From positions 577,449 through 641,448 of the forward strand of contig CP065013.1 in the NCBI GenBank assembly GCA_016700315.1: a stretch of 64,000 nucleotides of DNA. The letters run 5' to 3'. The stretch comes from Candidatus Saccharimonadota bacterium (GTDB lineage Bacteria > Patescibacteriota > Saccharimonadia > Saccharimonadales > SZUA-47). Of this stretch, positions 22,958-54,587 are shown piece after piece. The notes beneath the pieces were generated by a model. The model worked only from the letters and a program-made list of their open reading frames with translations. It searched no databases and had not been told where the DNA came from. Position numbers and translations under genes: made by a program. Position 1 is the first letter of the stretch; each line of letters begins with the position of its first letter.

Positions 22958-22995
22958 CGGGAGTGGCGCTAGTAAGGCAAGCGCGGGCGGTTTGA
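22958..22995 (+). other. 5' fragment of a tRNA-Pro paralog, broken in the anticodon loop
   Basis: CGGGAGTGGCGC..GCGCGGGCGGTTTGA aligns with positions 1 to about 35 of the intact tRNA-Pro at 23175. It has its own upstream TATAAT at 22937-22942. Confidence 0.7.
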
Positions 22996-23150
22996 GTGAG
23001 AAGTGCCAGTGGCTCCGCCAGCTGGCGGATTGCAAGGCCGGAAACAGATTTTGAACCTGTTCAAAGTATGTTGAAGCGGGGCCGAGGCATGGCTGGCCAT
23101 AGGCTACCGTGATCGTGATCGTGGTCGTAAAGTCGCAAGTCGTGTAACGA
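22996..23150 (+). ncRNA. GTGAGAA-type tRNA-linked structured element, copy E1 (long subtype)
   Basis: Motifs in order: GTGAGAAGTGCCAGTGG, CTCCGCC-AGCT-GGCGGAT, GCAAGG, GGAAAC, hairpin TTGAA-CCTG-TTCAA, GTTGAAGCGGGGCCGAG. Collinear with copy E2. Confidence 0.55.
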
Positions 23151-23174
23151 ACTTTTTAGTTATAATGTATTTAT

Positions 23175-23251
23175 CGGGGAGTGGCGCAGTTTGGTAGCGC
23201 GGGCGGTTTGGGACCGTCAGGTCGCAGGTTCAAATCCTGTCTCCCCGACCA
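23175..23251 (+). tRNA. tRNA-Pro (anticodon TGG), CCA encoded
   Basis: Cloverleaf folded by hand: acceptor CGGGGAG/CTCCCCG, D stem GCGC/GCGC, anticodon loop TTTGGGA, T arm GCAGG-TTCAAAT-CCTGT. TATAAT at 23161-23166. Confidence 0.95.
23243..23251 (+). repeat. Left direct repeat (attL core) CCCCGACCA inside the tRNA-Pro 3' end
   Basis: Identical 9-mer at 33229-33237; the extended match is 11 of 13. Confidence 0.7.
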
Positions 23252-23354
23252 GAGAAGTCTTACTCAAACTCCCGGCTTGCCCGTCCTCACTGGACGGCAA
23301 GCCGGGAGTTTCTGTTTCCGGGGCTTCGTGCCTCATTCGCCGACGGCAGTCCTC

Positions 23355-23627
23355 GCGGCCGAGCCGTCTCGCTTCACGTTCCATGTGCACGATCTGCCGG
23401 AACGGCTCGTTGATGTCGTCGGCCACGACCTGATGGCGGTGGATGTAGATCTTGTTGAATACTGCCTGGTTGAGCTGGCGTCGCCCTGAGTCCGTCAGCT
23501 TCCCGTATAGCCCTGATGGCTTGGCGAGCAGGTCGAGGATGAAGTTGATCAGCTCTGCTCCTACTTGGATGTCGGAGTTCAGTCCGGCAAGCTCGTCTCG
23601 CAAGCGCTGGCGGTGCGCGGCTGCTCG
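23355..23627 (-). pseudogene. C-terminal remnant of a large serine recombinase-like gene
   Basis: The segment ...LLAKPSGLYGKLTDSGRRQLNQAVFNKIYIHRHQVVADDINEPFRQI... matches my recollection of the C-terminal tail of actinobacterial recombinase family proteins. There is no catalytic N-terminal part upstream. Confidence 0.45.
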
Positions 23628-23830
23628 GTGATCAGCTCGATCGGCACTGCCGGTCCGACCACGTGATGGAGGCTCAGTAGTCGGTTGGCTTGCCGCTCGG
23701 CGATCTGAAGCGCCTCTCCCAGGGTCAGGACGCGGGAGGGCATCAGCGAACGCAGCTGCTTCAGCGTGCTCTCCGTCGTGCCGTGGCGGGCAACTTCGCT
23801 GTTGGTTGGGTGGTTGATGCAGACAGCGCT
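23579..23830 (-). pseudogene. Fragment of an XRE-HTH / ImmA(IrrE)-like gene
   Basis: ...EVARHGTTESTLKQLRSLMPSRVLTLGEALQIAERQANRLLSL...PIELI resembles the end of an HTH domain plus an ImmA/IrrE N-terminus. It is truncated after about 60 aa. Confidence 0.3.
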
Positions 23831-23949
23831 CGTCAGGCGCAACGCCGAGCCGATGATAGATACCAAGAGGCTGGCAACACGGCAGTTGGTGGACTGAGTG
23901 ACATCGAGATGCGGATTGGCCAGCTGCAGGACTTCGAGAGAGCCGGCTG

Positions 23950-24807
23950 ATGGCGACCCACGAGAGCATTGATCGTCTGAGTTACGAAACACGGCATTTG
24001 GCCGACGTGGTCGCCCAGTCCGCAGGGCTGTGGCGTGATCAAGCGTCGGAGCACATCCACAAGCGGTATCTCCGGCCTCATGCGTCCGCCGCTGCGGGGA
24101 TTCTCGAAGGCCTGGCCGAGCAGGATGAGCACGACAGTGCCGCAAGCAACCATGCCGAGGAGGCATACGGCTACCAGCAACAGGCGTTTGCCGTTGTCGA
24201 GGTCGTCAACGCTGAAGTCGACCGGGCGAAGCGTCACGAGCAATCTGCCCACAGCTTCCTAGACCAGACTCTCCGGCACGAGCAGACCGTCGGACAGATC
24301 GAAACCAAGTTTCGATCACTCATCGACCAGGCGAACCATTCATGCAACGGGTGCCCTGGGCATGCCGGGCAAGTTGCGCCGAGTGTCGTCCTGCCTCGAC
24401 GGGTCGATCAGCTTGCGTCGGTCCCGACCCCTCAATCGAGCGCTTCAGCCGAAGCCGACTTTGCGCGTGCGACCGGACGTAACTATGGAGCAGCAGCAGA
24501 GCTCACGGTTGGTGGGCGCAAGTTTGTTCGAACATCAGACGAGGCTGGCCCCTCAGTGGGCTCCTTACATCCTGCTATGCAGGAGGTGCTGGATCGAGTG
24601 CCCGAAGGTCAGCAGTCTAAAACACATGGAAAGTGTGCCGAGATATGGGCTATCAGTGACGCGCTCCACGAGGGTATTGACCCCAGCGGAGGGTCGATCC
24701 ATGCCACTCAGATTGGCGACCGTGGAAGGCTTAAGCATGGGGACACCAAAGGCAACTGCTCATCTTGCAGCTGGGTCCGCAAGGAATTTGGAATTGCGCA
24801 CGCCTGA
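23950..24807 (+). CDS. Polymorphic-toxin-like protein with a C-terminal cytidine-deaminase-fold (YwqJ/SCP1.201-like) domain
   Basis: 285 aa. Helical N-terminal region of about 130 aa. The C-terminus carries HGKCAEIWAISDAL (a CAE zinc/catalytic motif) and GNCSSCSWV (CxxC). Confidence 0.5.
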   Translation: MATHESIDRLSYETRHLADVVAQSAGLWRDQASEHIHKRYLRPHASAAAGILEGLAEQDEHDSAASNHAEEAYGYQQQAFAVVEVVNAEVDRAKRHEQSAHSFLDQTLRHEQTVGQIETKFRSLIDQANHSCNGCPGHAGQVAPSVVLPRRVDQLASVPTPQSSASAEADFARATGRNYGAAAELTVGGRKFVRTSDEAGPSVGSLHPAMQEVLDRVPEGQQSKTHGKCAEIWAISDALHEGIDPSGGSIHATQIGDRGRLKHGDTKGNCSSCSWVRKEFGIAHA

Positions 24808-24810
24808 TGT

Positions 24811-25284
24811 GTGGTAGAATTGATTCAAACTATGATTGACTATGACAGACTCTATAACGCGGCGCTAATGGCCGGCGAGGCGGAATCAGAAGCTGTGTAT
24901 CAACGGCTCATGCAGATTGCAACGAGAACCTTTGGGCCGCTTTCTGGAGAACTTCCAGTCGAGCTCCGACCCCACTTCGCAGACGCCAGGGCTTGCTGGT
25001 TAATGGGTGAGCCGATTGATCTAGAACCTGCAAGGATTCACTGTTGGCAATATCTGAAGGACCATGGCATAACCTACGACAACTTCAGAGAGAACCGTCT
25101 CACCGGAATAATACGAATCCTCATCTGCCTGCTGTACAGCTATGAAGCAAGCCTAGCAACGACTCCTGCAGGTATAGGCGAAGCATCTGACAATATTGCT
25201 TGGTTCTTCAACGAGCTGGGTGACAATGCGATTCAATTGGCTCTACCTCCAAACACCACTGCCGACTCGCCCGGTGCGGGCTGA
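24811..25284 (+). CDS. Candidate cognate immunity protein
   Basis: 157 aa. Starts 3 nt after the toxin stop. Locally lower GC than its neighbours. No recognisable motif. Confidence 0.4.
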   Translation: MVELIQTMIDYDRLYNAALMAGEAESEAVYQRLMQIATRTFGPLSGELPVELRPHFADARACWLMGEPIDLEPARIHCWQYLKDHGITYDNFRENRLTGIIRILICLLYSYEASLATTPAGIGEASDNIAWFFNELGDNAIQLALPPNTTADSPGAG

Positions 25285-25294
25285 CGACTCTTCG

Positions 25295-25806
25295 ATGCTC
25301 TCATTAGATTCTTCGTTCTCTCGAGACGGGATGAATTCAAACTGGATCGGATCATTCGGCGAGCAGTGGTTTGGAACGATGTGTATCGCGTCTCGCTGCA
25401 TTCATTCGAAACCTAATCAGGACACGGCAGGTTTTGACTTTCTGGTCACAGACCAGCAGAGCGAGACGATCCGAGTTCAAGTCAAAGCGACCGAACAGCC
25501 ACAATGGCGTGACGGAAGCTTGGCCTTCGACCTTGACGTCGCCACATACGACAAGCTCAGACAAGGCACAACCCCCGGATTTCTGGTGGTTGTCGTCCTG
25601 CACCGCAGGCTCGAGGTGATCGCGCGTCACTTCGGCCGTGGGTTGTCGTGCGCGCCTCAGGATACTGGCTTCGGTTGGGTGGTCTACCGCCGACGAACAA
25701 CGCCTCCACGATCACTGTGCGACTCCCCTCTGGCAACATGCTGACGCAAGATCAGGTGCCGTTGCTGTTTCCTGCCGAAGGGGGTGTGCAAAGTGAGCGA
25801 GGATGA
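25295..25806 (+). pseudogene. DUF4365-like PD-(D/E)xK nuclease-fold gene with a frameshift near 25600
   Basis: GSFGEQWF...DTAGFDFLV...IRVQVKAT matches the DUF4365 motif pattern. After ...FLVVVVLH the expected continuation (RPWVVVRASGYWLRLGGLPPTNNASTITVRLPSGNMLTQDQV) is in the neighbouring frame, ending at TGA 25804-25806. Confidence 0.5.
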
Positions 25807-26908
25807 TGTCCTTGTAAGTCCCAAGTCTTTGACCAGCTACTTCTTACGCACACCGGATTGGAGCGTGGCCGTCACGAACGATCGACGCACCATCTTTGAG
25901 CATGTGAGTGGTCAGCGCGCCTTTGTGCCGGGATCGGTAGAGGTGGATTATGCCGAACTTGTTGCCGCGGCCGTCGTCAGCATCGCGGCAGCGGAGAGCC
26001 GAGACGAGCAGGATGTGTGGAGCTCGCTGCTCTGGCAGCGTCGTGATCATCTCCAGGTTCGTCGCCTCACCGCGGATGCGTCGGTATCGCTAGCAACCGG
26101 CTTGGAGATGCACGAGGCTTTGCAAGACCTCATCATTGCTGCGACTAGGTCGTCGATTGCTCCGAACGCACATCATCGCGGCCGTCGGCCGGCAGCCGTC
26201 GATCGATACGTGGAGCAGGTTCGACTCATCCCGTCATTGCCGGGAAGTTTCGTAGTCCGAGCACTTCTTCCGGTTGAACCGCTGTCGGACGACCCACAGC
26301 TGGAATTGGAGGGCTCGGCTATCGCGGTTCCGGAACACAGAGCAGTATCGGACCTTCTGATGAAGGCAACGCGAGTGGCGGTGGCGACGGCGTCGGCAAT
26401 CTCAGGCGGAGGAGAGCTCAATTCGTGGGACGCCGCCGTACCCCAAGGCGTGAGCTCAAATCTCTGTGATGCGTTGGCGCGGCTCACTGGCGGCGGCAGC
26501 GAGGCCATGACCACTGAACTCAGTGTCGGCAGGGCCTGGCAGTCGGGCGTCTCGGATTCCGACATGGTCAGTATCCCCGCCGGGGCATCGCCGGGCCTGG
26601 AGGTTGGCGGTGTGTACTTGCGCTCTCAGTCGGAGCAGCTGGAGATCAGAGCTACCGGCCTAGTCGTCAAGCTTCATCGAGAGAATCAACTTGGTGCGGG
26701 TGAGGTAACGATCCGTGGTGTGATTGAGGGGGCAGACGACTCCGGACGTTCACGTACTGTCAAGGTTCCACTCGACGAGTTGAGCTACAACGAGGCAGTC
26801 CTTGCACATAGGGCCGGTCGCCCAGTCACCGCACGGCTCCAGGTTGTGCCCGGTCCGTCAGGACTTGTCGTTCAGCACGTGCGAAACTGGCGGGTGATCG
26901 ATGACTGA
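25784..26908 (+). CDS. Hypothetical protein, partner of the DUF4365-like gene
   Basis: 374 aa with a GTG start that overlaps the restored upstream gene end. No motif recognised. Confidence 0.5.
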   Translation: MCKVSEDDVLVSPKSLTSYFLRTPDWSVAVTNDRRTIFEHVSGQRAFVPGSVEVDYAELVAAAVVSIAAAESRDEQDVWSSLLWQRRDHLQVRRLTADASVSLATGLEMHEALQDLIIAATRSSIAPNAHHRGRRPAAVDRYVEQVRLIPSLPGSFVVRALLPVEPLSDDPQLELEGSAIAVPEHRAVSDLLMKATRVAVATASAISGGGELNSWDAAVPQGVSSNLCDALARLTGGGSEAMTTELSVGRAWQSGVSDSDMVSIPAGASPGLEVGGVYLRSQSEQLEIRATGLVVKLHRENQLGAGEVTIRGVIEGADDSGRSRTVKVPLDELSYNEAVLAHRAGRPVTARLQVVPGPSGLVVQHVRNWRVIDD

Positions 26909-27093
26909 TATGCGTAGCGACGGGATGCCCTCAGCCGAGCGCTCGTTCGGCTTCAGTTCGTGGTCGATGGTCTGTTGCCCGGGATCGGACGGCAGGTACG
27001 CGAATCGACTGGACTGCCGCACCGGGCACAGCTCAGCCGGTCAACGATCTATATTCGCTACGGGCACTAGGCCGTGGCTCTGGGGAATCAAAA

Positions 27094-27879
27094 ATGAAAA
27101 CCAAACTTGTTCGGCAACTGGTGACGTCTGTTGCTTCGTGGGCGACGTTGCTCGGCTTCGCCCTGGTGTTCAAAGACCCGGCAAGGTCGTTTTCAATTGG
27201 TTGGGTTCTATTGATTGCCTTGAGTGTTGCAGCCCTGTCGGTGAACCTTCTTTACGATGTTAAAGAATATCGAGCCAATCGCTCGCGGATTTTTAAAGAA
27301 GATAAGAACGATAAGTCCAAAAAAGATCGCGAAATCCAGCGCTACATGATTGCCTGGATCAAGTCGGGTGGAAGAACAACGATTCTTACGCGTGACATGT
27401 CCTGGCTAAACGAAGAGGCGCGAGATGAGCTAACCAAAAAGGCCAAGACTGGAGATTTGACCATCCTTGCCCAGGAGCCTGGTGAGGGGGACATACAGGA
27501 GCTTGCGAGACAGGGTGCCCAGGTATACTATTATGGTATGAAAGGCTTTGTTCCTCAGTCGCGGTTCACGATAATCAACGATTCCAAGTTGGGTGCGTGT
27601 GTTTTGATCGGACGTCCAGACAACCAGAACCACGTGATCGAAAAGTACTCAGATCCGATGTCGCCCGTCATTTCGCTGGCAAAGGACCTCGCCGGGTATG
27701 TCAAGAAGTCGCAGAAAAAGCCAAAGAAGAAGTCTCTGCGGCTTACTAAAGATAGCGGGTCAACGGGAGATGTTCGACACGTGAGTGGCAACGGGATGCC
27801 GGAGCCGCTCGATAGCGCCGCCTGTGAAGCATCCGAGCTAACTCAACCCACCTCCGACACCCCAGCGAGCGAACAATGA
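27094..27879 (+). CDS. Two-TM membrane protein with a cytoplasmic domain of unknown function
   Basis: 261 aa. Two N-terminal TM helices, a K-rich linker and a globular domain (IAWIKSGGRTTILTRDMSWL...SRFTIIND...GACVLIG). The layout is reminiscent of a PLD-like fold, but the HxK motif is absent. Locally lower GC. Confidence 0.55.
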   Translation: MKTKLVRQLVTSVASWATLLGFALVFKDPARSFSIGWVLLIALSVAALSVNLLYDVKEYRANRSRIFKEDKNDKSKKDREIQRYMIAWIKSGGRTTILTRDMSWLNEEARDELTKKAKTGDLTILAQEPGEGDIQELARQGAQVYYYGMKGFVPQSRFTIINDSKLGACVLIGRPDNQNHVIEKYSDPMSPVISLAKDLAGYVKKSQKKPKKKSLRLTKDSGSTGDVRHVSGNGMPEPLDSAACEASELTQPTSDTPASEQ

Positions 27880-29230: not shown

Positions 29231-29515
29231 TTAGCCCCACAACGTGATGTCTTCGAAGAACGACTTGAGCGCCGACACGGTCCCGTGCTGGCGGGCGATC
29301 GACACCGGTCGCCCGTGGGCGCGTCGTCCTCGTGATGGTCGGGTGTGGTTCCAGGCCAGGAACTCCTCGATCATCTGCCGGTCGAGCTGGTCGAGGCCGG
29401 CGGTGTTGGGGTGGTGGTCGTGGAGCCACATGGCGAACAGCTCGAAGCTGTCGCAGCGGTCCTCGATCGTGGATGGTCGCAGCGTGGTCGAGCAGGCTTG
29501 GAGGTAGCGGTTCAT
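29231..29515 (-). pseudogene. N-terminal SAM-like domain fragment of a tyrosine recombinase
   Basis: MNRYLQACSTTLRPSTIEDRCDSFELFAMWL...IEEFLAWN...VSALKSFFEDITLWG matches phage-integrase N-terminal SAM-like domains. A stop follows WG, and no catalytic domain is recognisable downstream. Confidence 0.5.
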
Positions 29516-42048: not shown

Positions 42049-42225
42049 AAACAAAAAATGCCGACACTTGATTTCGGCATTTTGGTTTATAGCGAAGCAA
42101 GCTCTAGGGAAGCTAAAAAAACAAAACTCAATTCCGATTGAGTTTTGAGAAGGAGAAGCTGCTCAAGCGTAAACAAAAAATGCCGACACTTGATTTCGGC
42201 ATTTTGGTTTATAGCGAAGCAAGCT
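42049..42225. repeat. Duplicated 55-bp unit (42049-42103 and 42171-42225) containing a terminator hairpin, downstream of tRNA-His
   Basis: AAACAAAAAATGCCGACACTTGATTTCGGCATTTTGGTTTATAGCGAAGCAAGCT occurs twice, 122 bp apart. The spacer carries the hairpin CAAAACTCAA-TTCCGA-TTGAGTTTTG (42122-42147). Confidence 0.9.
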
Positions 42226-42388: not shown

Positions 42389-42440
42389 GCCCCGGTAGCT
42401 CAAGGGACTCGGAGCGATGGGCTTCTATCCCACAGGTCGG
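42389..42440 (+). other. 5' fragment of a tRNA-Arg(TCT) paralog, broken in the T stem
   Basis: GCCCCGGTAGCTCAAGGGACTCGGAGCGATGGGCTTCTATCCCACAGGTCGG. The anticodon arm is identical to the intact gene at 42637 but the D loop differs. TACAAT lies upstream at 42368-42373. Confidence 0.7.
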
Positions 42441-42600
42441 GTGAGAAAGTCCAGTGGATCCGCCAGCTGGCGGATCGCAAGGACGGAAACTGATTTACTG
42501 CTTGCAGTAAGTAAGTTGAGGCGGAGCCGAGACTCGGCTATATCCGCCTAAGGCGGATTACCGAGATCGTGGCGAGAATCAGATTTATGTTGGGTTTATA
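42441..42600 (+). ncRNA. GTGAGAA-type tRNA-linked structured element, copy E2 (long subtype)
   Basis: Motifs in order: GTGAGAAAGTCC-AGTG-GATCCGCC-AGCT-GGCGGATC-GCAA-GGAC, GGAAAC, hairpin TACTG-CTTG-CAGTA, GTTGAGGCGGAGCCGAG. Confidence 0.55.
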
Positions 42601-42636
42601 TAATTTGAACCCCTGTTATAATATACTTCGGTACCT

Positions 42637-42713
42637 GCCCCGGTAGCTCAGTGGATTAGAGCGATGGGCTTCTATCCCACAGGTCGGGGGTTCGAATCCC
42701 TCCCGGGGTACCA
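42637..42713 (+). tRNA. tRNA-Arg (anticodon TCT), CCA encoded
   Basis: Hand-folded: acceptor GCCCCGG/CCGGGGT, anticodon loop CTTCTAT, T arm GGGGG-TTCGAAT-CCCTC. Confidence 0.93.
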
Positions 42714-42751
42714 ATAATAATACCTCAGCTTGTCTGAGGTATTATTATTGG
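42714..42751 (+). terminator. tRNA-Arg(TCT) terminator hairpin
   Basis: AATAATAATACCTCAG-CTTGT-CTGAGGTATTATTATTGG. Confidence 0.75.
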
Positions 42752-42999
42752 TTATATTGGTGGATTAGAACGCCCGACCAAAAAGGTCGGGGTGAGAAAG
42801 TCCAGTGGATCCGCCAGCTGGCGGATCGCAAGGAAACAAACTCTTGAAAACTTGTTTTCAAAGATGTTTTTTCGGGTGAGACGATTCAGTGAATCGTCGC
42901 AAGGACTATTGTCTGATTTCAAACTTGTTTGAAGAAAGACAAAGTCGGGGTCGCTGAAAGTGACCGCCGAAGGTGAGTCGAATCCCTCCCGGGGTACCA
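42752..42999 (+). pseudogene. Composite pseudo-tRNA-Arg(TCT): degenerate 5' part, element E3 (42792-42977), then a perfect 22-nt tRNA 3' end
   Basis: GGTGGATTAGAACG..AAGGTCGGG, then GTGAGAAAGTCC...GGTCGC-TGAAA-GTGACC..GGTGAG, then TCGAATCCCTCCCGGGGTACCA. A second terminator follows at 43000-43039. Confidence 0.65.
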
Positions 43000-43150
43000 A
43001 TAAAAATACCTTAGCTTGTCTAGGGTACTTTTTTTATTGTTTATCTTAACGGATTCGAACACCGGAGCTAAAGAGTTAGATTAAAGTTTTATGTGAGATA
43101 GATTTTGACGGGTTTTGTGCTAACATTTAAGCATAAGCGAGGAGACTAAC

Positions 43151-44491
43151 GTGGACGAAAAACAAGACTTAACTGCTAAAGCAGATAATGTCCAAGCAAG
43201 TAACAGTGATAATAATGAAACTAGTAATCCGGATAACGAGATATCACAATTGGGGCAGCCTTCAACGGCAATTAGTTCAAGTGCATCATCCCCAAAGAAG
43301 TTCAACAAAAGTAAAGTTTATGTGCTGACCTTAATCGGTCTAATTGCCGTAGGGGTTGTGCTGTGGCTATTGGTTTTTAATAATCCCAAAAAAGCCGAAG
43401 CACCAGTTAGTAATGTCACGACAGACACAAATTCTGCACAGGTTACATCTAATCAGCCAGCCCAGAAGAAAATCAGTGCCGATAAAATTATCTATGCATA
43501 TTCAAACTCGGGCGCTAATGACTTGAAGATTTACAGCCGGTCCGCAGGCGGCGGTGACAAGAAGGAGCTTCTCAATTTTACCGCGGGTGAAATCATGGAG
43601 AGCTACAGCGTTCGAGGCCAGAGCATTGCCCTTGCTATTACTGGTGGTAGCCCTAAGGGACTCAAAATAATGTTTAGTTCGGACGGTGGAGTAACCTTCA
43701 AGCCGATCTATCAGAAGGCAAACTCCGAGCTACAGGTAACAAGCTTGATGCTGTCGGACGATGCTACCTCTCTTACAATGGCCTTACTCGAAACGCCAGC
43801 TTCCAAAAATAAAGTCTACGAGGTGCCTCTTGATGGTTCAGGTTCAATAAAAGAGCTATTCACAGCTGCTACAGCGGGAGTAGCGATGTATTCTTACAGC
43901 ACAAAAGCATCGTCAATTGTTTTCTCGGAAGGTTGCTGGAACTGTGATGGCTTCAACAACAAAGAAATATTTTCTTACGATATAAACGCTAAAGCCAGGA
44001 AGTCGCTATATCAATCACCAATCGGTGGCCTTTCTCTAGGAGTAACAAGTGACGGTACTGAAATGATCGTGGCTGAAGGTTCAAAATATACAGGTCCTCC
44101 ATCTGAAGGTTTAGGTGGACCGATTACTCAACCCCCTTACAAATTTATATCTGTCAATATTAAATCTGGGGATAAAAAACAAGTAGGTGAAACCAATGAC
44201 AAAGTCCAGGATGTAGCGTACATCTCTAACGTTCAACCGTATTATGTAAGTGACAAAAAAGTAGTGGAATTAGTTAGCACGCCGGTGACAAAATTTGAAG
44301 CCGATAAACAAATTTCAGAAGCTGCATACGTGTCGGACACGGAAGTAGTCGTAGCGACTGGGGTTGCCGACGCTTATGGATACATAAAAGACTATAGCTT
44401 AAGCACCTTCAAACTAACTGACAAATCAATCATCAAAGTGCTAGAAGGTGATCAGCAAACAACTATTATCGGTGTTACCTCTACAAAATAA
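43151..44491 (+). CDS. Membrane-anchored extracytoplasmic hypothetical protein
   Basis: 446 aa with a GTG start. Low-complexity N-terminus, one TM helix (VYVLTLIGLIAVGVVLWLLVF), and a beta-rich C-terminal region. Confidence 0.65.
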   Translation: MDEKQDLTAKADNVQASNSDNNETSNPDNEISQLGQPSTAISSSASSPKKFNKSKVYVLTLIGLIAVGVVLWLLVFNNPKKAEAPVSNVTTDTNSAQVTSNQPAQKKISADKIIYAYSNSGANDLKIYSRSAGGGDKKELLNFTAGEIMESYSVRGQSIALAITGGSPKGLKIMFSSDGGVTFKPIYQKANSELQVTSLMLSDDATSLTMALLETPASKNKVYEVPLDGSGSIKELFTAATAGVAMYSYSTKASSIVFSEGCWNCDGFNNKEIFSYDINAKARKSLYQSPIGGLSLGVTSDGTEMIVAEGSKYTGPPSEGLGGPITQPPYKFISVNIKSGDKKQVGETNDKVQDVAYISNVQPYYVSDKKVVELVSTPVTKFEADKQISEAAYVSDTEVVVATGVADAYGYIKDYSLSTFKLTDKSIIKVLEGDQQTTIIGVTSTK

Positions 44492-44831
44492 CAATGCAAG
44501 ACCCTACCAAATTTTGACCACTTGATTGGCAAAATTTAGGTAGGGTTGGAGTTGATTCACTGGCATTAGCCAGTGCTGCTATCTTCAAGGGGGTCCCCAA
44601 ACAATTCCGATTGTTTGGGGTAGAGGAGGAACAATGCAAGACCCTACCAAATTTTGACCACTTGATTGGCAAAATTTAGGTAGGGTTGGAGTTGATTCAC
44701 TGGCATTAGCCAGTCTGCTACAGGGGTCCCCAAACAATTCCGATTGTTTGGGGTAGAGGAGGAACAATGCAAGACCCTACCAAATTTTGACCACTTGATT
44801 GGCAAAATTTAGGTAGGGTTGGAGTTGATTC
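44490..44831. repeat. Tandem repeat of 140 + 133 + 69 (partial) bp, abutting the 3' end of tRNA-Gly
   Basis: The unit AACAATGCAAGACCCTACCAAATTTTGACCACTTGATTGGCAAAATTTAGGTAGGGTTGGAGTTGATTC... recurs at 44490, 44630 and 44763. Each full unit carries the hairpin CCCCAAACAA-TTCCGA-TTGTTTGGGG. Confidence 0.92.
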
Positions 44832-44836
44832 CGACG

Positions 44837-44911
44837 TGGTGCGGGTAGAGAGAATCGAACTCTCCTCTCAAGTTTGGAAAACTTGCATTCTAGCCGATGA
44901 ACTACACCCGC
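44837..44911 (-). tRNA. tRNA-Gly (anticodon TCC), CCA encoded
   Basis: Hand-folded: acceptor GCGGGTG/TACCCGC, anticodon loop TTTCCAA, T arm GAGAG-TTCGATT-CTCTC. Confidence 0.93.
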
Positions 44912-46477: not shown

Positions 46478-46510
46478 AATGGGTCAATTATATCACAAAG
46501 AGTATAAAAT

Positions 46511-46599
46511 TAGTAGTTAGTAGTTAGTAGTTAGTAGTTAGTAGTTAGTAGTTAGTAGTTAGTAGTTAGTAGTTAGTAGTTAGTAGTTAGTAGTTAGTA
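46511..46599. repeat. Heptanucleotide microsatellite (TAGTAGT), about 12.7 copies
   Basis: Read directly. It starts 34 bp upstream of the HTH-murA start codon. Confidence 0.95.
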
Positions 46600-46631
46600 T
46601 CATGTATAAAGTATGAACTCGCACCTAGAGC

Positions 46632-48822: not shown

Positions 48823-48824
48823 GT

Positions 48825-49841: not shown

Positions 49842-49876
49842 TTAAACATTATACCTAATGTGTTAAACTATGACTT

Positions 49877-50437: not shown

Positions 50438-50506
50438 TTTTTCTCTGTTAAACTGCTAGTTTAGTACTAGTATTTCAAGGATTTGTTCTAGAAATTACAC
50501 AATTTT

Positions 50507-50616
50507 GCGAGAGGAATCGCAAAATTAAGAGGAAACGGCTTGGCGGGGGTGCCGGAATTGTTGAGTGAACTTGTTTCGTCAACGGTTCCGGCGCAAGCGC
50601 CATCACCCGTTGACGA
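50507..50616 (+). ncRNA. Highly structured leader directly upstream of tRNA-Lys; possible divergent relative of the GTGAGAA elements
   Basis: Nested stems: GCGA-GAGGAA-TCGC, CCGGAA...TTCCGG, CGTCAACGG...CCGTTGACG and GGCG-CAAG-CGCC. It shares the GGAAAC, ACTTGTTT and CGCAAG motifs with the family. Confidence 0.35.
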
Positions 50617-50693
50617 GGGGCCATAGCTCAGTTGGTTAGAGCATCTGCCTCTTAAGCAGAGTGTCCTGGGTTCAAGTCCCAGTGGCCCCTCCA
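50617..50693 (+). tRNA. tRNA-Lys (anticodon CTT), CCA encoded
   Basis: Hand-folded: acceptor GGGGCCA/TGGCCCC, anticodon loop CTCTTAA, T arm CTGGG-TTCAAGT-CCCAG. Confidence 0.95.
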
Positions 50694-50729
50694 AATAAAA
50701 AACCCAGCATGTCTGGGTTTTTTATTTGG
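50694..50729 (+). terminator. tRNA-Lys terminator hairpin
   Basis: AATAAAAAACCCAG-CATGT-CTGGGTTTTTTATTTGG. Confidence 0.75.
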
Positions 50730-50886
50730 AGGGTCTATAAGCTTCAACCCGGGGCACCCGGTTTCAGAGTGTCATGGGTGAGAAATGCCAGTGGCATTTC
50801 GGAAACGAATCTTCCGACAAAAACTTGTTTTTTGATCGCGAAGTTCGGGGGTCGCGGAACGTGACCAAGTCCCAGTGGCCCCTCCA
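50729..50886 (+). pseudogene. Composite pseudo-tRNA-Lys: degenerate 5' part, minimal element E4 (50778-50865), then a perfect 21-nt tRNA 3' end
   Basis: GAGGGTCTATAAGC..CAGAGTGTCATGG, then GTGAGAAATGCC-AGT-GGCATTTC GGAAAC.. CAAAAA-CTTG-TTTTTTG .. GGTCGC-GGAAC-GTGAC, then CAAGTCCCAGTGGCCCCTCCA. Confidence 0.65.
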
Positions 50887-50892
50887 ACTATC

Positions 50893-51360
50893 TTAGTCTT
50901 TTGTCCAAATTTCGAAATGATAGCTGAGGCCGTTCTCGGCTTTTGGGGCTGAGCTTGATTGAAGCTTGAAAGCCTTTGGTAGCTGTGGGAAGAACTTATC
51001 ACAGCTAAAATCAGCATCGATTCTTGTGATGTATACCTCGTCTGCGTGAGGTAGCGCCAACTCGTAAATCTCTTGGCCGCCAATAACCCAGAGATCGTTA
51101 GTAAAACTATCTATAAACTTTGTCGGATCTTTGATCCAAGTAACTCCAGGTTTTGCGGGTTGAGAACGTCGAGAACAAACGTAGTTATGGCTTTCGGGCA
51201 GAGCTCGGCCGATTGCATTGTGTGTATTGTGGCCTATGATAATACTTGAACCACGGATTCTATTATGAAAATAAGCTAGTTCGTTTGGCAGGCTCCACGG
51301 CATTCGGCCGTCCTTGGCAATGCCGCTTTTACTATCAACTGCCACGATTAGTCTTATCAT
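50893..51360 (-). CDS. folA: Dihydrofolate reductase
   Basis: 155 aa. Starts MIRLIVAVDSKSGIAKDGRMPWSLPNELAYF. Confidence 0.9.
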   Translation of the reverse strand: MIRLIVAVDSKSGIAKDGRMPWSLPNELAYFHNRIRGSSIIIGHNTHNAIGRALPESHNYVCSRRSQPAKPGVTWIKDPTKFIDSFTNDLWVIGGQEIYELALPHADEVYITRIDADFSCDKFFPQLPKAFKLQSSSAPKAENGLSYHFEIWTKD

Positions 51361-52205
51361 CTTACATCTAAACCGACTACTTCAAGTGTTATTGCTAAGG
51401 CTTTCTCGAAGGCACTACTTAAAGCTCTCATGGCCATTAGATTTGGCTCGAGGCTTTTCTGGTCGTTCGTAAGTCGAGTATTGTATTCAACTTGGAGGGA
51501 TTGGACGAAATTTCCGATACCCAAAGATTTAAGCTCTCCTGAGTTTCGGAGTGATGAATAGCGCTGAGTGGCATAGCCTCCCTTAAAGACATAATTCAAG
51601 CAAACATCACTTGCTAATCCTGCTAGTCCGAGTTGTTTGGAAAGCTCAAATCCCAGAGAGCGTAAAAGCTCAGGATTGCAGGTAACTAACTCATCGCCTA
51701 TTTCAGCAGTGTCGGGGAGACCGCGGTTACTCAAAATTATTGAAGGCATCATTACCGGTTTGCCGTCGTCGTTTATGGCTAGTTGCTTATTAGCGGTGTT
51801 ATGCCAAGATACCAGCAAGACTTTAGCGGGAGCTTCTTTCAGCTGGGAGATAATTGCATCGTGGTAAGGATTATAATACTTTTTACGAAGTACTCTTTGC
51901 TCTGATTTTGTTAGTTCTCGACCTGGTAGCCAGACATTGTTTCGGGGTTTGCCAAAGTCTTGGAGTGGAAATAGCTCTTCGTTATTTGGCGGTCGATTTG
52001 CATCACCAAGCGCGCGACTATGGCCAGATATAACCGTGGCTGTGGCATTAGTGGATGGAACAGTAAGTTCTGTGTCATAGTCAGAAAAGCGTCTAACATC
52101 GTTCGGCGAAAGCGCGCAGCGCTCAGCGAACCTATGCAAATTTGCACTGGCATGCTCAACCGTATAAATAACTGGATATTTTCCACTGCCCGCAATAACT
52201 ATCAT
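51357..52205 (-). CDS. N-formylglutamate amidohydrolase-family-like protein (weak assignment)
   Basis: 282 aa. The EHAS...SRALGDANRP...YYNPYHDAI...SWHN pattern resembles the FGase family. It occupies the position upstream of folA where thyA is often found, but it is not ThyA- or ThyX-like. Confidence 0.4.
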   Translation of the reverse strand: MIVIAGSGKYPVIYTVEHASANLHRFAERCALSPNDVRRFSDYDTELTVPSTNATATVISGHSRALGDANRPPNNEELFPLQDFGKPRNNVWLPGRELTKSEQRVLRKKYYNPYHDAIISQLKEAPAKVLLVSWHNTANKQLAINDDGKPVMMPSIILSNRGLPDTAEIGDELVTCNPELLRSLGFELSKQLGLAGLASDVCLNYVFKGGYATQRYSSLRNSGELKSLGIGNFVQSLQVEYNTRLTNDQKSLEPNLMAMRALSSAFEKALAITLEVVGLDVR

Positions 52206-52222
52206 TCATCTATAATAGAGCA

Positions 52223-53056
52223 ATGAACCGGACTAAAAAACAAAAATTTTTACAAAGTCTTCGGAAGTTGCCTCTTGGTTGGCTATTATCCTTCGTTATT
52301 AAACTAGGTTGGGCTGCAGTTTTTGGCGGGCTAATGCTTCTGGCTATCATAGTAACCCGATATGTTGAGCTACCATGGCTCGCAAGAGCAGACTGGCTTT
52401 TTTTGTGGGCTGTTGCCGTGCAGTTGGTACTTTTACTAACAAAACTGGAGAAGCCTCATGAGGTCATAACGATTTTTGTATTCCACCTTGTTGGCCTGGG
52501 CATGGAGATTTTTAAAACTTCAAATACAATCGGTTCGTGGCAATACTTAAGTGTTGGATTTTTCCATGCTGGCAACGTACCGCTATACTCTGGCTTTATG
52601 TACGCTTCGGTTGGTAGTTTTATAGCAAGAGCTTGGCGAGTGTTAGATCTAAAGTATACCAATAGCCCTAGAAAACTTCACTCTCTGCTTTTGGCTGTAG
52701 CTATCTATATAAACTTCTTCACGCATCATTACATTTTTGATTTCAGATGGCTGTTGTTAGCCTTAATGGCGCTATTTTATTGGCGCTGCGATATACATTA
52801 CAGGATCAATCAGAGACAGCATCATATGCCGTTCTTGCTGTCTGCGTTTTTGTCGGCATTTTTTATTTGGGTTGCAGAGAACATTGGTACATTCACTCAG
52901 AGCTGGCTATATCCCAGTCAGGAGCAGCATTGGCATTTTGTAAGCCTACAAAAACTTAGTGCCTGGCTGCTACTTATGTATATTAGCTTTGTTTTGATCG
53001 ACATACTGCATTATTTACGGCAGAAGCGTTTGGCAGAAAGACAACAGAAGTGCTAG
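52223..53056 (+). CDS. Multi-pass integral membrane protein (possibly DUF817-like)
   Basis: 277 aa with about 8 hydrophobic segments. The family name is from memory only. Confidence 0.5.
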   Translation: MNRTKKQKFLQSLRKLPLGWLLSFVIKLGWAAVFGGLMLLAIIVTRYVELPWLARADWLFLWAVAVQLVLLLTKLEKPHEVITIFVFHLVGLGMEIFKTSNTIGSWQYLSVGFFHAGNVPLYSGFMYASVGSFIARAWRVLDLKYTNSPRKLHSLLLAVAIYINFFTHHYIFDFRWLLLALMALFYWRCDIHYRINQRQHHMPFLLSAFLSAFFIWVAENIGTFTQSWLYPSQEQHWHFVSLQKLSAWLLLMYISFVLIDILHYLRQKRLAERQQKC

Positions 53057-53094
53057 TATAACAGAGGCTATACGGCTAGTTTAGGTTAACTACA

Positions 53095-53322
53095 AAAACA
53101 AAATTCCGATTTTGTTTTGAATAGCGACAAAACTTTATGGCTACCACTAGCGCACAAAATTCACATTTTGTACGTTTGAAAAGCCAGAAAGAATTGCAGC
53201 TAAATGTATTAGAAGCTGCTAACCCAAAACAAAATTCCGATTTTGTTTTGAATAGCGACAAAACTTTATGGCTACCACTAGCGCACAAAATTCACATTTT
53301 GTACGCTTGAAAAGCCAGAAAG
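53095..53322. repeat. Duplicated 97-bp unit (53095-53191 and 53226-53322, 1 mismatch) ending 9 nt upstream of tRNA-Arg(TCG)
   Basis: The unit contains the hairpins AAAACAAAA-TTCCGA-TTTTGTTTT and ACAAAAT-TCAC-ATTTTGT. Its reverse complement contains a D-arm-like GCGCTAGTGGTAGC. Confidence 0.9.
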
Positions 53323-53331
53323 TTTTGGAGA

Positions 53332-53408
53332 GCACCCGTAGCTCAGCGGATTAGAGCATCTGTCTTCGGAACAGAGGGTCGGCGGTTCGAATCCGTCCGG
53401 GTGTACCA
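53332..53408 (+). tRNA. tRNA-Arg (anticodon TCG), CCA encoded
   Basis: Hand-folded: acceptor GCACCCG/CGGGTGT, anticodon loop CTTCGGA, T arm GGCGG-TTCGAAT-CCGTC. Confidence 0.93.
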
Positions 53409-53446
53409 ACAAAAATTCCTCAGACTGTCTGAGGTATTTTTGTTGG
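53409..53446 (+). terminator. tRNA-Arg(TCG) terminator hairpin
   Basis: ACAAAAATTCCTCAG-ACTGT-CTGAGGTATTTTTGTTGG. Confidence 0.75.
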
Positions 53447-53550
53447 TAGTTCTGGCACAGAACCGCGAGCCGCCGTGGTCGGTTCGATAATCCCCCGTCA
53501 ACTTGTTGGCAGACGGGCGGATTATACCTAAGTAATCCGTCCGGGTGTAA
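53447..53550 (+). pseudogene. Degenerate pseudo-tRNA-Arg(TCG) with a 45-nt insertion in the T loop, flanked by a TAATCC duplication
   Basis: ...GTGGTCGGTTCGATAATCC, then CCCGTC-AACTTGTTGGCA-GACGGG..CTAAG, then TAATCCGTCCGGGTGTAACA. Confidence 0.55.
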
Positions 53551-53689
53551 CATTTCTGTACTTATACCTAACTTCCTATCCGTTTGTTTTGTTCATAATA
53601 GGTTAACTCCACAGAGCACCTTCTACGAGATTTGCACTTTCATCGTGCTATTGCTTGCATTGTGCCAACTGTATTGAAATAATAATTCC

Positions 53690-54259
53690 ATGCTTAGAAG
53701 TCTCGACATATCATCTTACCCCGCAACTCAAGAATTGCTACATGAGAGAGGTAGGCAAGATATTCTCGAAACCCTTGATCGATTTAACGAACAACTTGGC
53801 GAATTCTCTGAAGAGTTTGTTGTCATTGGAGGTGCTAACTTGGTTCTGCGTGGAATCAAAAGAACCACTGTTGATGTAGATATACTGGTCTCAGATGGAG
53901 TTTTCTACACAATGTCACAAATAGAAGGTGCGAAGATTAAATACCCTCCAAAAAGGGCAATTAACAATGGAGCAACCAACACTTCAGTATGGATCAATAC
54001 TGACTGGACGAAGATTCCAATAAGCGGAGCTACTGAAATGGGTGACGGATACTATCCTATTTCATATGCTATGTATGATGATGTAGACCTGGAGCTTTTT
54101 GGAGGCCATGCAGTAGCACCGCTAGACGATGTTTGGAAATCTAAAGTAGCATTGCAACGACCTAAAGATTTACCTGATTTGTATGTCATTGCAAAGCATA
54201 CTGGAAGGAGTATGCTCCTGCCTGCTCCCGTATATACTGGCCCGTTTCTAGATAGTTAA
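53690..54259 (+). CDS. Putative minimal nucleotidyltransferase-fold protein
   Basis: 189 aa. VVIGGANLVLRGIKRTTVDVDILV resembles the GS/GG...DxD motif of Pol-beta-type nucleotidyltransferases. It lies between repeated tRNA-Arg 3' ends. Confidence 0.45.
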   Translation: MLRSLDISSYPATQELLHERGRQDILETLDRFNEQLGEFSEEFVVIGGANLVLRGIKRTTVDVDILVSDGVFYTMSQIEGAKIKYPPKRAINNGATNTSVWINTDWTKIPISGATEMGDGYYPISYAMYDDVDLELFGGHAVAPLDDVWKSKVALQRPKDLPDLYVIAKHTGRSMLLPAPVYTGPFLDS

Positions 54260-54299
54260 CTGATTTTACTAGCAATTTTTTTCTAAGCTCGATAAGGAT

Positions 54300-54345
54300 G
54301 CTGTACCAACAAAAATACCTCAGACTGTCTGAGGTATTTTCGTGG
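54300..54345 (+). other. Orphan tRNA-Arg 3' tip (GCTGTACCA) plus a copy of the tRNA-Arg terminator
   Basis: GTACCAACAAAAATACCTCAGACTGTCTGAGGTATTTTCGTGG is near-identical to 53403-53446. Confidence 0.7.
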
Positions 54346-54587
54346 CTGTGATCGGCGGATTCGAATTGTCGGCCACTCAAAAGAGGGTCGGTGTGAGAAC
54401 TGCCTGTGGCAGTCCGGAAACGAATCTTCTCTTGCAAACTTGTTTGCAAAGATGAATTTTCGGGTGAGACGATTCAGTGAATCGTCGCAAGGACTATTGT
54501 CTGATTTCAAACTTGTTTGAAGAAAGACAAAGTCGGGGTCGCTGAAAGTGACCGCCGAAGGTGAGTCGAATCCGTCCGGCCGTACCA
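54346..54587 (+). pseudogene. Composite pseudo-tRNA-Arg(TCG): degenerate 5' part, element E5 (54393-54565), then a tRNA 3' end (2 mismatches)
   Basis: ..GGCGGATTCGA..AGAGGGTCGGT, then GTGAGAACTGCC-TGT-GGCAGTCC GGAAAC ... GGTGAG, then TCGAATCCGTCCGGCCGTACCA. The 3' 117 nt (54457-54573) are identical to 42869-42985. Confidence 0.65.

Follow-up and report, generated by a model that had tools for sequence, protein, structure and literature searches.

tRNA Loci of the Window

The window, a stretch of 64,000 nucleotides of contig CP065013.1 from Candidatus Saccharimonadota bacterium, contains intact tRNA genes accompanied by truncated copies that carry short non-coding elements (E1 to E5, and a smaller insert, E6). 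All features described here lie on the forward strand, and the window genes neighboring the elements are housekeeping genes. At the tRNA-Pro locus, comparison with the intact gene at 23175 revealed a displaced 5′ tRNA part (positions 1–∼35; 22958–22994) with an altered D loop and its own −10-like box upstream. This part is followed by E1 (22996–23125), a long-form element whose first hairpin has an additional TCCGCCAGCTGGCGGA hairpin and which terminates in ..GATCGTGG. Reading of the sequence from 23125 to 23174 identified a diverged tRNA-Pro copy (positions ∼40–56) and then TTATAAT 5′ of the intact gene; a full sigma-70 consensus was not found in this interval. E1 also has a displaced 3′ tRNA piece (23125–23142), which was missed in the first-pass annotation. 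The intact tRNA-Pro (TGG) gene itself (23175–23251) was identified by ARAGORN and Rfam, as were the intact tRNA-Arg (TCT) and tRNA-Lys (CTT) genes described below.

The intact tRNA-Arg-TCT gene (42637–42713) has elements on both sides. Upstream, a displaced 5′ part (positions 1–∼51; 42389–42440), altered in its D loop but identical to the intact gene over its last 30 nt, precedes the long-form element E2 (42441–42573). The interval from 42574 to 42636 holds a short fold-back of the T arm (GGGTT..TTTGAACCCC), and the intact gene has a promoter-like site there (TTTATA-16-TATAAT with TG, 42595–42622). Downstream, a long hairpin including the CCA end, a degenerate inverted T-arm copy and a CCCGACC/GGTCGGG hairpin, the 3′ strand of which is a copy of tRNA positions 45–53, occupy 42714–42791, and a promoter-like TTGTCT-17-TATATT (42730–42758) lies ahead of E3. 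E3 consists of a module without the third hairpin (E3a, 42792–42871) and a complete module with this hairpin duplicated (E3b, 42876–42976). Repeat comparison placed a displaced 3′ tRNA part (T loop to CCA) at 42977–42999, and a terminator-like hairpin follows at 43007–43027.

The intact tRNA-Lys gene (50617–50693) is followed by a terminator with a stem formed in part by the CCA end, and then by a degenerate inverted T arm and a copy of tRNA positions 40–53 (50694–50777). E4 (50778–50866) is a canonical short element; junction mapping placed it in place of T54-T55, and repeat comparison assigned 50866–50886 to the displaced 3′ tRNA-Lys part (C56 to A76). The intact tRNA-Arg-TCG gene (53332–53408) is followed by a terminator and a tRNA-Arg-TCG fragment (together 53409–53552, the fragment at about 53446–53552) carrying a sixth, smaller insert: E6 is a 44-nt hairpin with a AACTTGTT loop, located within the T loop of the fragment. 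Further downstream, a TGTACCA copy with terminator, a degenerate inverted T arm and a copy of tRNA positions ∼44–53 (54303–54392) precede E5, which comprises a module without the third hairpin (E5a, 54393–54463) and a complete module (E5b, 54464–54564). The displaced 3′ tRNA-Arg-TCG part (54565–54587; repeat comparison) has two differences from the intact gene.

The tRNA break points of the first-pass annotation, and its placement of E1 and E2 behind promoter-bearing 5′ fragments, hold at these loci. A tRNA 3′-end copy and a second terminator had been reported after each of E3 to E5; these statements also hold, except that E4 lacks the second terminator.

Membership and Fold of the Elements

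The window sites were scored with a covariance model derived from 69 copies in other genomes, and this model recovered all five of the sites originally claimed. E4 gave 98 bits (E 1e-24). The first module of E5 scored 69 bits (over 54389–54494), with a partial match at 54499–54553 in E5b, and the second and first modules of E3 scored 67 and 38 bits, respectively. E2 scored 29 bits. Given the weak score of E1 (16 bits, E 0.016), its membership was also judged by its 78% identity to E2 across 99 nt and by the 93% identity of its middle 55 nt to the long-form copy of related strains (L091). E3b and E5b are 95% identical to each other. The five sites match their description, but the boundaries drawn for E3 and E5 each enclose two tandem modules; the sites correspond to seven modules of one family, with E1 and E2 representing a longer subtype.

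The element is about 86–88 nt in length, and its core consists of three hairpins. In the alignment of the 69 copies, pairing holds in 97% of cells, and at 20 of 31 pairs both bases have undergone compensatory change. Its covariation score, 0.46, compares with 0.14 for shuffled and 0.03–0.08 for slid controls, and RNAalifold independently recovered the identical structure. The earlier proposal of a selected RNA fold is therefore strongly supported. One pair is a conserved G·U in 61 of the 69 copies, and 103 G·U pairs occur across the alignment compared with 17 A·C; on this basis, the fold was assigned to the tRNA-sense strand. The second hairpin has 17 pairs and a CUUG loop, and its base includes part of GGAAAC, which had been described as a free motif. 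The terminal hairpin (7 pairs, GAA triloop) had been considered specific to E3–E5. It is indeed absent from E1 and E2, but it belongs to the standard core and is otherwise missing only from the first modules of E3 and E5.

The unpaired bases GUGA, GNAAR, GG and CUUG are highly conserved. The GTGAGAA heptamer by itself is not enriched (8 matches versus 8.5 expected), so the family is delimited by its fold rather than by this word. A search of Rfam, one of the checks proposed in the first-pass annotation, returned zero matches and assigned no known family. The element belongs to a superfamily with a common left end (G, then UGAGAA) and a hairpin with a C(A/U)GUG loop: the first 24–29 nt are exactly common to the long and short forms, and the same T-loop site is also taken by other modules having the identical first hairpin.

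Distribution and tRNA Context

A single pattern scan of 185,579 species genomes yielded 71 further loci, nearly all in genomes titled Saccharibacteria or Saccharimonadia, confirming that the family extends beyond the window. Covariance model matches total 89, tandem arrays among them. Saccharibacteria host a hitherto undescribed family of ∼88-base, three-hairpin non-coding elements in copies of tRNA genes. Mean identity of the elements within genomes (0.78) is barely higher than that between genomes (0.75), which counts against a mobile nature.

The element is co-oriented with the adjoining intact tRNA gene, and at stereotyped distances from it, in each of the 53 classified loci. In 39 of these (class D), it is found 63–99 nt downstream, beyond the terminator of the intact gene; in the other 14 (class U), it lies within about 100 nt upstream, behind the original promoter. 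The adjoining tRNAs span about 15 amino acid families. Exactly 2 nt were replaced in 32 of 33 mappable insertions, most often T54-T55 of the T loop, and the base 5′ of the mapped junctions is always G. Rarer sites are the D arm or D loop and the anticodon loop of tRNA-Pro, and a single insertion was found in a non-tRNA hairpin loop. The element enters tRNA gene sequence in one orientation only. On the side toward the intact gene, target sequence is often present as an inverted, hairpin-forming copy; a hairpin directly adjoins the element there at 18 of the 39 class D loci and 8 of the 14 class U loci, compared with 17% at random positions.

None of the classified loci has the element inside a complete tRNA gene; each persisting copy lies in a redundant, truncated version of a tRNA gene, with an intact gene for that type of tRNA immediately adjacent. 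This arrangement bears on whether the element could be a tRNA intron, self-splicing or protein-spliced, as the first-pass annotation had suggested for a degenerate self-splicing lineage. Group I introns are abundant in the tRNA genes of Patescibacteria, and tRNA sequence is likewise interrupted in loops in the element family of this phylum. However, the group I introns exceed 200 nt and are precisely spliced from genes that are otherwise complete, which they interrupt at position 35/36 (PMC13011429). By contrast, the element has 88 nt, far below group I size, is without an Rfam intron match and resides in truncated copies. Given that two bases are replaced, removing it would yield a loop that lacks 2 nt. 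These observations contradict the intron interpretation, which we consider extremely unlikely.

A host-beneficial structured RNA, spread between tRNA loci by gene conversion rather than selfishly, would be consistent with the strong covariation, the invariant unpaired bases and the strict co-orientation. Such an RNA could affect the processing or stability of tRNA transcription units, act there as a decoy, or bind a protein as a small RNA. The tRNA promoters directly ahead of class U copies, which would also suit the ncRNAs from captured promoters suggested in the first-pass annotation, and the promoter-like site ahead of E3 point the same way. Moreover, E4 is retained in ∼10 of ∼10 strain contigs and is ∼99% identical in a relative whose adjoining DHFR protein is only 73% identical. 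Nevertheless, most class D copies follow a terminator too closely for a promoter to fit in between, many tRNAs are without the element, and the confinement to truncated pseudo-copies, the arrays and the occurrence of decayed or partial modules are not readily explained by a host function. A host RNA thus appears unlikely, also because 90-nt cores are 100% identical in three species at unrelated tRNA positions (the Pro-CGG T loop, the Pro-TGG D arm and the Leu-TAG T loop), beyond the reach of flank homology.

Movement through RNA was also considered, by ribozyme- or protein-assisted joining to tRNA loops or by a template-switching reverse transcriptase, with the chimeric cDNA then recombining at the gene. 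The targets are exposed loops of the folded tRNA, and the T-loop site (54–55) and the D-loop GGT site are in contact at the tRNA elbow; the sense-strand fold with its conserved G·U is also in keeping with this route. Duplicated tRNA segments mostly terminate exactly at mature ends (+1 or CCA), but selection on the replacement part predicts these boundaries equally. Class U units bear a new promoter, which is not derivable from RNA, no known ribozyme family was matched, and reverse transcriptases are absent near all copies. Group II introns, moreover, are reportedly missing from Patescibacteria (PMC13011429). Overall, an RNA route seems rather improbable.

Genomic Neighborhood and Strain Comparison

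Among the 150 ORFs nearest to the copies, no family of recombinases, transposases or reverse transcriptases recurs, and the pattern scan gave no match to the element in viral contigs. At L031, element units occasionally lie beside small cargo ORFs. The anticodon loop and the T loop are reportedly the classic integrase sublocations within tRNA genes, and the break points, the regenerated intact gene and the displaced fragment are features shared with integrative elements. In related strains, tRNA-Arg-TCG harbors a serine-recombinase island and tRNA-Lys an Mrr island. On this reading, which is quite doubtful, the elements would be end sequences left after deletion of larger integrative elements, such as prophages or islands encoding a tyrosine or serine integrase, which would have used the T loop or anticodon loop as attB and supplied the replacement tRNA part. 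Besides the missing integrase family and the viral result, no element of kilobase size is bordered by any of the 89 copies, with a spacing of 63–99 nt between copy and tRNA, and the element splits the T loop of the fragment rather than abutting an intact core. One identical element occurs in three different tRNAs, and the serine-recombinase island is joined at TGTACCA, not at the element.

The elements look mobile. A long-form unit at tRNA-Arg-TCG is present in L091–L094 and absent from the window, where the intact gene at 53332–53408 forms the empty site, and from L078/L083, with identical upstream flanks, so that the search for empty sites yielded an occupied/empty pair. This pair need not mark a new insertion, as it could also have arisen by loss of the unit or by homologous recombination that brought in an old allele. 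For the short element, neither an excised form nor a precise empty site was seen in the strain contigs.

Proposed Mechanism and Comparison with Known Systems

Among the options of the first-pass annotation, miniature mobile elements that use tRNA loops and bring replacement tRNA halves fit best, given the identical copies, the occupied/empty pair, the arrays and the stereotyped junction. Classical att-site integration, the other part of that option, is not established because no integrase is linked and the element lies inside the displaced-fragment loop, not beside an intact att core. We give about an even chance to the element being a trans-mobilized, non-autonomous, non-coding structured mobile element whose persistence is limited to redundant tRNA copies. 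The folded single strand (ssDNA on the lagging-strand template, or a transcript) would be acted on by an enzyme whose gene lies elsewhere in the genome, with the first hairpin as the putative recognition element. If insertion into a sole functional tRNA gene is lethal, only products keeping or regenerating the intact gene would survive. The intact gene might be kept via a coupled partial duplication or template switch; alternatively, a small unit carrying the matching tRNA part may recombine. Units would later be lost by recombination between direct repeats.

Against mobility, the conserved unpaired bases resemble those of a functional RNA, and the matching direct and inverted tRNA parts are not accounted for by any observed step. 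To our knowledge, a two-base replacement without target duplication or terminal inverted repeats fits no transposition chemistry, and we know of no enzyme or mechanism that accounts for the insertion.

Several known systems share features with the mobile element proposed here. Integrative elements with a tRNA attB are alike in their anticodon-loop and T-loop breaks, gene regeneration, fragment displacement and tandem arrays at tRNA genes, but the units described here are only about 190 bp and have no integrase, the element lies within the displaced-fragment loop, and identical copies serve many tRNAs. The Escherichia coli tyrT 178-bp repeats (rtT RNA) are also tandem units downstream of a tRNA, each ending in a tRNA 3′-end copy; their sequence and structure are unrelated, the Rfam RtT model does not match the element, and they have no loop-specific structured insert. 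Integron attC sites are similar in a one-strand fold kept by compensatory change, in arrays and in small cargo ORFs occasionally nearby, as at L031. Unlike attC, the element has no R/L core boxes and no IntI gene, its loops and junctions are invariant, and its target is a tRNA loop. REP/REPIN-RAYT systems and IS200/IS605-derived PATEs are likewise short, multicopy and non-coding, have hairpins beside a conserved 5′ tetranucleotide, and are strand-specific without terminal inverted repeats or target duplication; they are also mobilized in trans, through an enzyme that works on folded ssDNA, a further likeness that we infer for the element. By contrast, the element is known here without an associated HUH/RAYT gene, has three hairpins with RNA-like invariant junctions and targets a tRNA loop with removal of 2 nt, always alongside a partial tRNA duplication.

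Modules in the window and their relatives in other genomes

The five GTGAGAA-led stretches described in the first-pass annotation were all found in the window and have ordered sequence blocks in common. When compared with the larger family of this ~88-nt three-hairpin non-coding element (here termed E), the five sites (E1-E5) resolved into seven modules. E1 (22996-23125), upstream of tRNA-Pro, and E2 (42441-42573), upstream of tRNA-Arg-TCT, belong to a longer subtype (the long form). E3, downstream of tRNA-Arg-TCT, comprises two tandem modules (42792-42871 and 42876-42976); E4 (50778-50866), downstream of tRNA-Lys, is the canonical short form; and E5, downstream of tRNA-Arg-TCG, comprises two modules (54393-54463 and 54464-54564). 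Across 165 nt, a length that includes the tRNA piece that follows, the second module of E3 is 95% identical to that of E5. A small hairpin insert was also located in another tRNA-Arg-TCG fragment (~53446-53552). By itself, the GTGAGAA heptamer was not enriched within the window. Six tRNA genes were identified in the window by ARAGORN and Rfam, and the neighbouring coding regions are of a housekeeping type (Kup, a P-type ATPase, an EPSP-synthase-fold enzyme, SHMT, MurB, DHFR, FolD and a Mur ligase), together with a YwqJ-like deaminase and a DUF6036 nucleotidyltransferase. The ORF at 23950-24807, which encodes the YwqJ-like deaminase (toxin) domain, follows a short distance after tRNA-Pro.

A search for copies elsewhere, as that annotation had proposed, was performed with a three-motif pattern against one genome for each of 185,579 species and returned 71 loci, mainly from Saccharibacteria/Saccharimonadia. 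The record titles named Saccharibacteria or Saccharimonadia for nearly all of these loci and only "bacterium" or "Patescibacteria group" for a few; the database name of the DHFR adjoining E4 gives Candidatus Saccharibacteria as its source. A covariance model built on an alignment of 69 distinct short copies detected 89 copies across these 71 loci, some of them in tandem arrays with three or four members, and scored the window copies at 98, 69, 67, 38, 29 and 16 bits. Two pattern scans of viral contigs gave a single chance match within a coding region (L001) and then zero. The proposed Rfam scan has likewise been run: over three stretches, Rfam 15 returned tRNA only at gathering scores and nothing relevant up to an expectation value of E = 10, and thus contains no family that matches the element even at that level. 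Literature searches did not turn up a description of these elements.

Fold of the element

The core of E reads, 5' to 3', GUGA, hairpin 1, a five-base junction G-N-A-A-R, hairpin 2, GG and hairpin 3. Hairpin 1 consists of 8 pairs with an invariant closing C-G and a loop of AGU or UGU. Hairpin 2 has 17 pairs, three bulges and a CUUG loop, and its base occurs as two co-varying variants, CGAA:UUCG and GAAA:UUUC. Hairpin 3 has 7 pairs, a GAA triloop and one conserved G·U. Across 69 sequences, paired cells amounted to 97% compared with 79% after shuffling, and the covariation score was 0.46 compared with 0.14 for shuffled alignments and 0.03-0.08 for slid controls. The claim of a selected fold, made originally from the window copies, is borne out by the covariation expected of a structured RNA, with both-sided changes in 20 of 31 pairs; RNAalifold independently gave the identical structure with compensation in 21 of 32 pairs. 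E is a lineage-specific family with a strongly selected fold.

G·U wobbles totalled 103 as opposed to 17 for A·C, with 79 of the G·U contributed by just two columns, and because of this concentration the assignment of the tRNA-sense strand rests mainly on the conserved wobbles and the invariable orientation. The GAA triloop and the CUUG loop are stable both as RNA and as DNA, and the fold data are compatible with a transcript and with folded single-stranded DNA, without deciding between them. A host-beneficial RNA spread by conversion is an alternative that we regard as unlikely; the transcription signals for E amount to promoter-like consensus matches only.

Arrangement of E and tRNA genes

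E occurs in one orientation and is confined to redundant, partial copies of tRNAs that adjoin an intact gene. In every locus with a tRNA within reach, its strand is that of the nearest intact tRNA, to which it lies 63-99 nt downstream or up to ~100 nt upstream, and the tRNAs concerned represent ~15 amino-acid families. All 53 classified copies reside in truncated tRNA copies adjoining the intact gene; among them, E was never found inside a complete tRNA gene.

Two arrangements were distinguished. Where the truncated copy and E lie downstream of the intact gene (class D), the intact tRNA is followed by a terminator hairpin, the stem of which usually reaches into the CCA end, then by a degenerate inverted copy of the T arm and acceptor 3' strand, often by a hairpin with a 3' strand copying tRNA positions ~44-53, and then by E, tRNA positions 56-76 and often a second terminator. 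Where E lies upstream, behind the original promoter (class U), this promoter is followed by the tRNA 5' part up to the break, E, a few bases of continuing tRNA, an inverted copy of those bases containing a TTGAAC that serves as the -35 box, a TATAAT box and finally the intact tRNA. On the side of E that faces the intact gene, a perfect hairpin (5 pairs or more) directly adjoins the element in 18 of 39 copies of class D and in 8 of 14 of class U, compared with 17% of random positions; on the far side, this is so for 3 of the 39 class D copies. At a tRNA-Thr locus (L028), the acceptor strands of two displaced halves are mutually complementary and differ from the intact tRNA between them, and therefore an older gene was split by a segment including the present intact gene and E.

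The class U pseudo-copies (22958-22994 and 42389-42440 in the window; L021, L026, L004 and L071 elsewhere) differ from their intact genes in a clustered manner, in the D loop and anticodon loop, with the stems intact. These differences are possibly footprints of other inserts or the result of selection disabling the copy.

Insertion junctions

Here, the core was defined as TGAGA... through the end of hairpin 3, and its flanks were compared with the neighbouring intact gene. Exactly two bases are replaced by the core in 32 of 33 mappable insertions, and one base in the remaining case. The replaced pairs are TT (T54-T55) in 24 instances, GT in 6, CA in 1 and TG in 1, and a G invariably stands immediately 5' of the core. 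Further sites comprise the D-stem/position-26 junction of tRNA-Pro, tRNA-Thr and tRNA-Gly, the D-loop GGT of tRNA-Gln and tRNA-Glu, and the anticodon loop of tRNA-Pro (E1 of the window, L034 and L065). Neither target duplication at the mapped junctions nor terminal inverted repeats were observed, the ends TGAGAA.. and ..GTGAC not being inverted repeats of one another. We know of no counterpart to four features of E: that it replaces two nucleotides, that it is specific to tRNA loops, that its junctions are invariant in an RNA-like manner, and that a partial tRNA duplication always accompanies it.

The one non-tRNA site is a hairpin loop holding an array of three modules. In this locus (L066 7190-7700), the three E-type modules interrupt a hairpin of sequence CCTCTAGAGG..CTAGAGG, which matches no Rfam family and recurs uninterrupted after the array. 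Downstream of a tRNA-Phe, on the reverse strand of L062, two T-loop bases of a displaced 3' fragment are replaced by only 9 nt (GTGAAGCGA), which may be a footprint or a minimal insert.

These data bear on the proposal, one of three in the first-pass annotation, that E descends from a tRNA intron. Given that 53 of 53 copies lie in truncated tRNAs and that excision would leave two nucleotides missing in 32 of 33 cases, this proposal can practically be dismissed. The group I introns described in Patescibacteria tRNAs, at position 35/36, are distinct from E (PMC13011429). No match was found in Rfam 15 to group I or group II introns or to hammerhead, twister, pistol, hatchet, HDV-like or hairpin ribozymes. 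By eye, GUGA-GAA..GAAA resembles the hammerhead core CUGAUGA..GAAA; this likeness was rejected, as C3, N7 and the 15.1-16.1 pair are wrong and Rfam gave no match.

Related inserts in displaced tRNA fragments

Across the loci and the window, which together contain 115 tRNAs, 3' fragments were counted 52 times downstream and 5' fragments 26 times upstream. A crude signature of E marks 31 of the 3' and 14 of the 5' fragments, and most of the other fragments inspected also carry an insert at a tRNA loop. Among these other inserts are E variants with different loops, members of a second family (GGCGAAA, the first hairpin, ...CTTTGCTTGGCCGAACGAG...) and of a third, and further types. The first hairpin, nnGCC-(A/T)GT-GGCnn, is common to most such inserts, the left end TGAGAA preceded by G is common to some, and the long and short forms of E are exactly alike over their first 24-29 nt. 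We infer that the left end and first hairpin constitute a common recognition element. No displaced fragment with an uninterrupted T loop was observed, bar at most one unclear case beside a masked stretch (L023), which suggests, without proving it, that fragment formation and insertion are coupled.

Three tandem units of ~133-140 nt lie on the minus strand at 44450-44831, downstream of tRNA-Gly (44837-44911). Each contains a long hairpin (ccctacc..ggtaggg), a GCCAGTG motif, a piece resembling a tRNA 3' end (ctctacccca) and a hairpin pairing with that piece. They resemble degraded units of a similar type in which no E can be recognised. Downstream of tRNA-His on the minus strand (42049-42225), an exact 55-nt repeat with a terminator-like hairpin inside recurs at a spacing of 122 nt, and a tandem heptamer, (TTAGTAG)n, of ~16 copies separates two genes at 46496-46621.

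Neighbouring enzymes and islands

A Pfam scan was performed on the 150 ORFs nearest E in 55 loci and on 18 window ORFs. No Pfam family occurred more than four times among the 150 nearest ORFs, and neither recombinase, transposase nor reverse transcriptase was among the recurrent families of either set. A Y1 HUH transposase or RAYT was not seen in flanks of ~8 kb. An RNA-mediated route is in our estimation improbable. Fusion at CCA, as expected of retroviral-type tRNA priming, was not seen.

Descent from integrase-borne elements was also considered. The intact tRNA is regenerated and a displaced fragment flanks it, as for att remnants; against this, the spacing is only 63-99 nt and integrase families are not recurrent in the 150 nearest ORFs, and we consider such remnants quite improbable. 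Related strains do contain larger islands at the same tRNAs, with junctions elsewhere than E: in L083 (2790-8480), TGTACCA of tRNA-Arg-TCG forms the junction with a 5.6-kb island that encodes a large serine recombinase of 547 aa, and an island bearing Mrr separates tRNA-Lys from the E4 unit (E4 plus accompanying tRNA parts). In the window, the segment 53553-54302, between tRNA-Arg-TCG and E5, holds the DUF6036 nucleotidyltransferase ORF (53690-54259) and is bordered by ..TGTAACA on one side and TGTACCA plus terminator on the other. Because these borders match the junction of the L083 island, the ORF was rejected as cassette cargo and is probably a separate insertion, the remnant of such a serine-recombinase island.

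Evidence for mobility and strain comparison

Cores 100% identical over 90 columns were found in three species representatives at three different places, namely the Pro-CGG T loop and Pro-TGG D arm (both class U) and the Leu-TAG T loop (class D). Many further pairs of 92-99% identity link different tRNAs. Different variants coexist within one genome, the mean identity of 0.78 within genomes being little higher than the 0.75 between them.

In related strains (L091-L094), a long-form unit occupies tRNA-Arg-TCG in the order native upstream flank, tRNA 1-25, element, tRNA 28-43 with an altered loop, 36 unique bases and intact tRNA, the element replacing C26-A27. The window and strains L078/L083 have the same upstream flank without the unit. 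This is a true occupied/empty pair; the difference is compatible with gain, with loss between direct repeats or with transfer of an old allele, and does not show which. The mobile-element option of the first-pass annotation is upheld in part: identical copies in unrelated positions and species and one presence/absence difference favour it. No polymorphism of the short element was detected, the E4 unit being retained by all strain contigs examined; for the E1 and E2/E3 loci, the strain look-up gave no exact record for three neighbouring proteins.

Other differences between strains were noted. Between L091 (2501-3159) and the window (50730-51360), the DHFR proteins share only 73% identity, and the adjacent E4 unit plus 40 nt beyond shares ~99%, a pattern suggestive of a recombination mosaic here. 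In L073 (2640-4760) and L086 (404-2061), tRNA-Lys is missing from its usual spot just upstream of the E4 unit, which starts at CTCCA and the terminator; in its place is other DNA with a 258-aa ORF and an Mrr-type restriction endonuclease. A tRNA-Lys gene was not found on these contigs, which are short. Just upstream of tRNA-Arg-TCG in the window (53095-53330), a 105-nt segment is repeated at 131-nt spacing with 96% identity; the corresponding intergenic region of L087 is 131 nt shorter and may lack one copy.

Comparison with known elements and a possible mechanism

In behaviour, E is most like the REPIN/IS200-IS605-type miniature elements, being hairpin-defined, strand-specific and devoid of inverted repeats or target duplication. 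One hairpin lies 4 nt in from the left end and another occupies the right end, the fold is specific to the sense strand and the orientation is fixed; the loss of two nucleotides is atypical of that group. In consequences for tRNA genes, E resembles tRNA-targeting integrative elements. Several other classes were rejected. DDE-type (cut-and-paste) MITEs do not fit an element without terminal inverted repeats at which two target bases are lost rather than duplicated. For integron attC sites, the alignment has no RYYYAAC/GTTRRRY ends and an integrase was not found nearby. The junctions do not fit the GTTC/CTTG target of IS91, a serine-recombinase 2-bp crossover would keep the dinucleotide that E loses, and a long staggered-cut target duplication cannot account for repeat ends at tRNA ends.

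We give about an even chance to E being a trans-mobilised, non-autonomous element with its folded sense strand as substrate. Insertions in a sole functional gene would be purged, and only products retaining an intact gene would be seen. By one route, insertion would be coupled to local duplication or a template switch, at which the inverted target copies hint; by another, a ~190-bp unit with a matching tRNA part would recombine in. A more tentative possibility is that E and its relatives represent a new class of mobile element, in which folded RNA or single-stranded DNA would recognise tRNA loops (chiefly the elbow at T54-T55 or the D-loop GG) and replace two nucleotides by an undescribed chemistry, for example a ribozyme-like or new HUH-like reaction, with the same process yielding the host-saving tRNA duplication.

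The genomes of Saccharibacteria are ~1 Mb with single-copy tRNA genes, and nearly half of the tRNA genes in the examined loci have displaced fragments holding these modules. This makes the modules a major influence on tRNA loci, so far unrecognised, throughout a large lineage of uncultured bacteria. The precise two-nucleotide replacement at T54-T55 and the RNA-like conserved fold point to an undescribed mechanism of recognition of, and insertion into, tRNA loops, of interest to the study of mobile elements and potentially useful for site-specific insertion. For annotation, the units yield tRNA pseudo-fragments and break assemblies. In the relative carrying P0003, contigs stop ~50-190 nt after DHFR, in several cases within the E4 unit or shortly beyond it.
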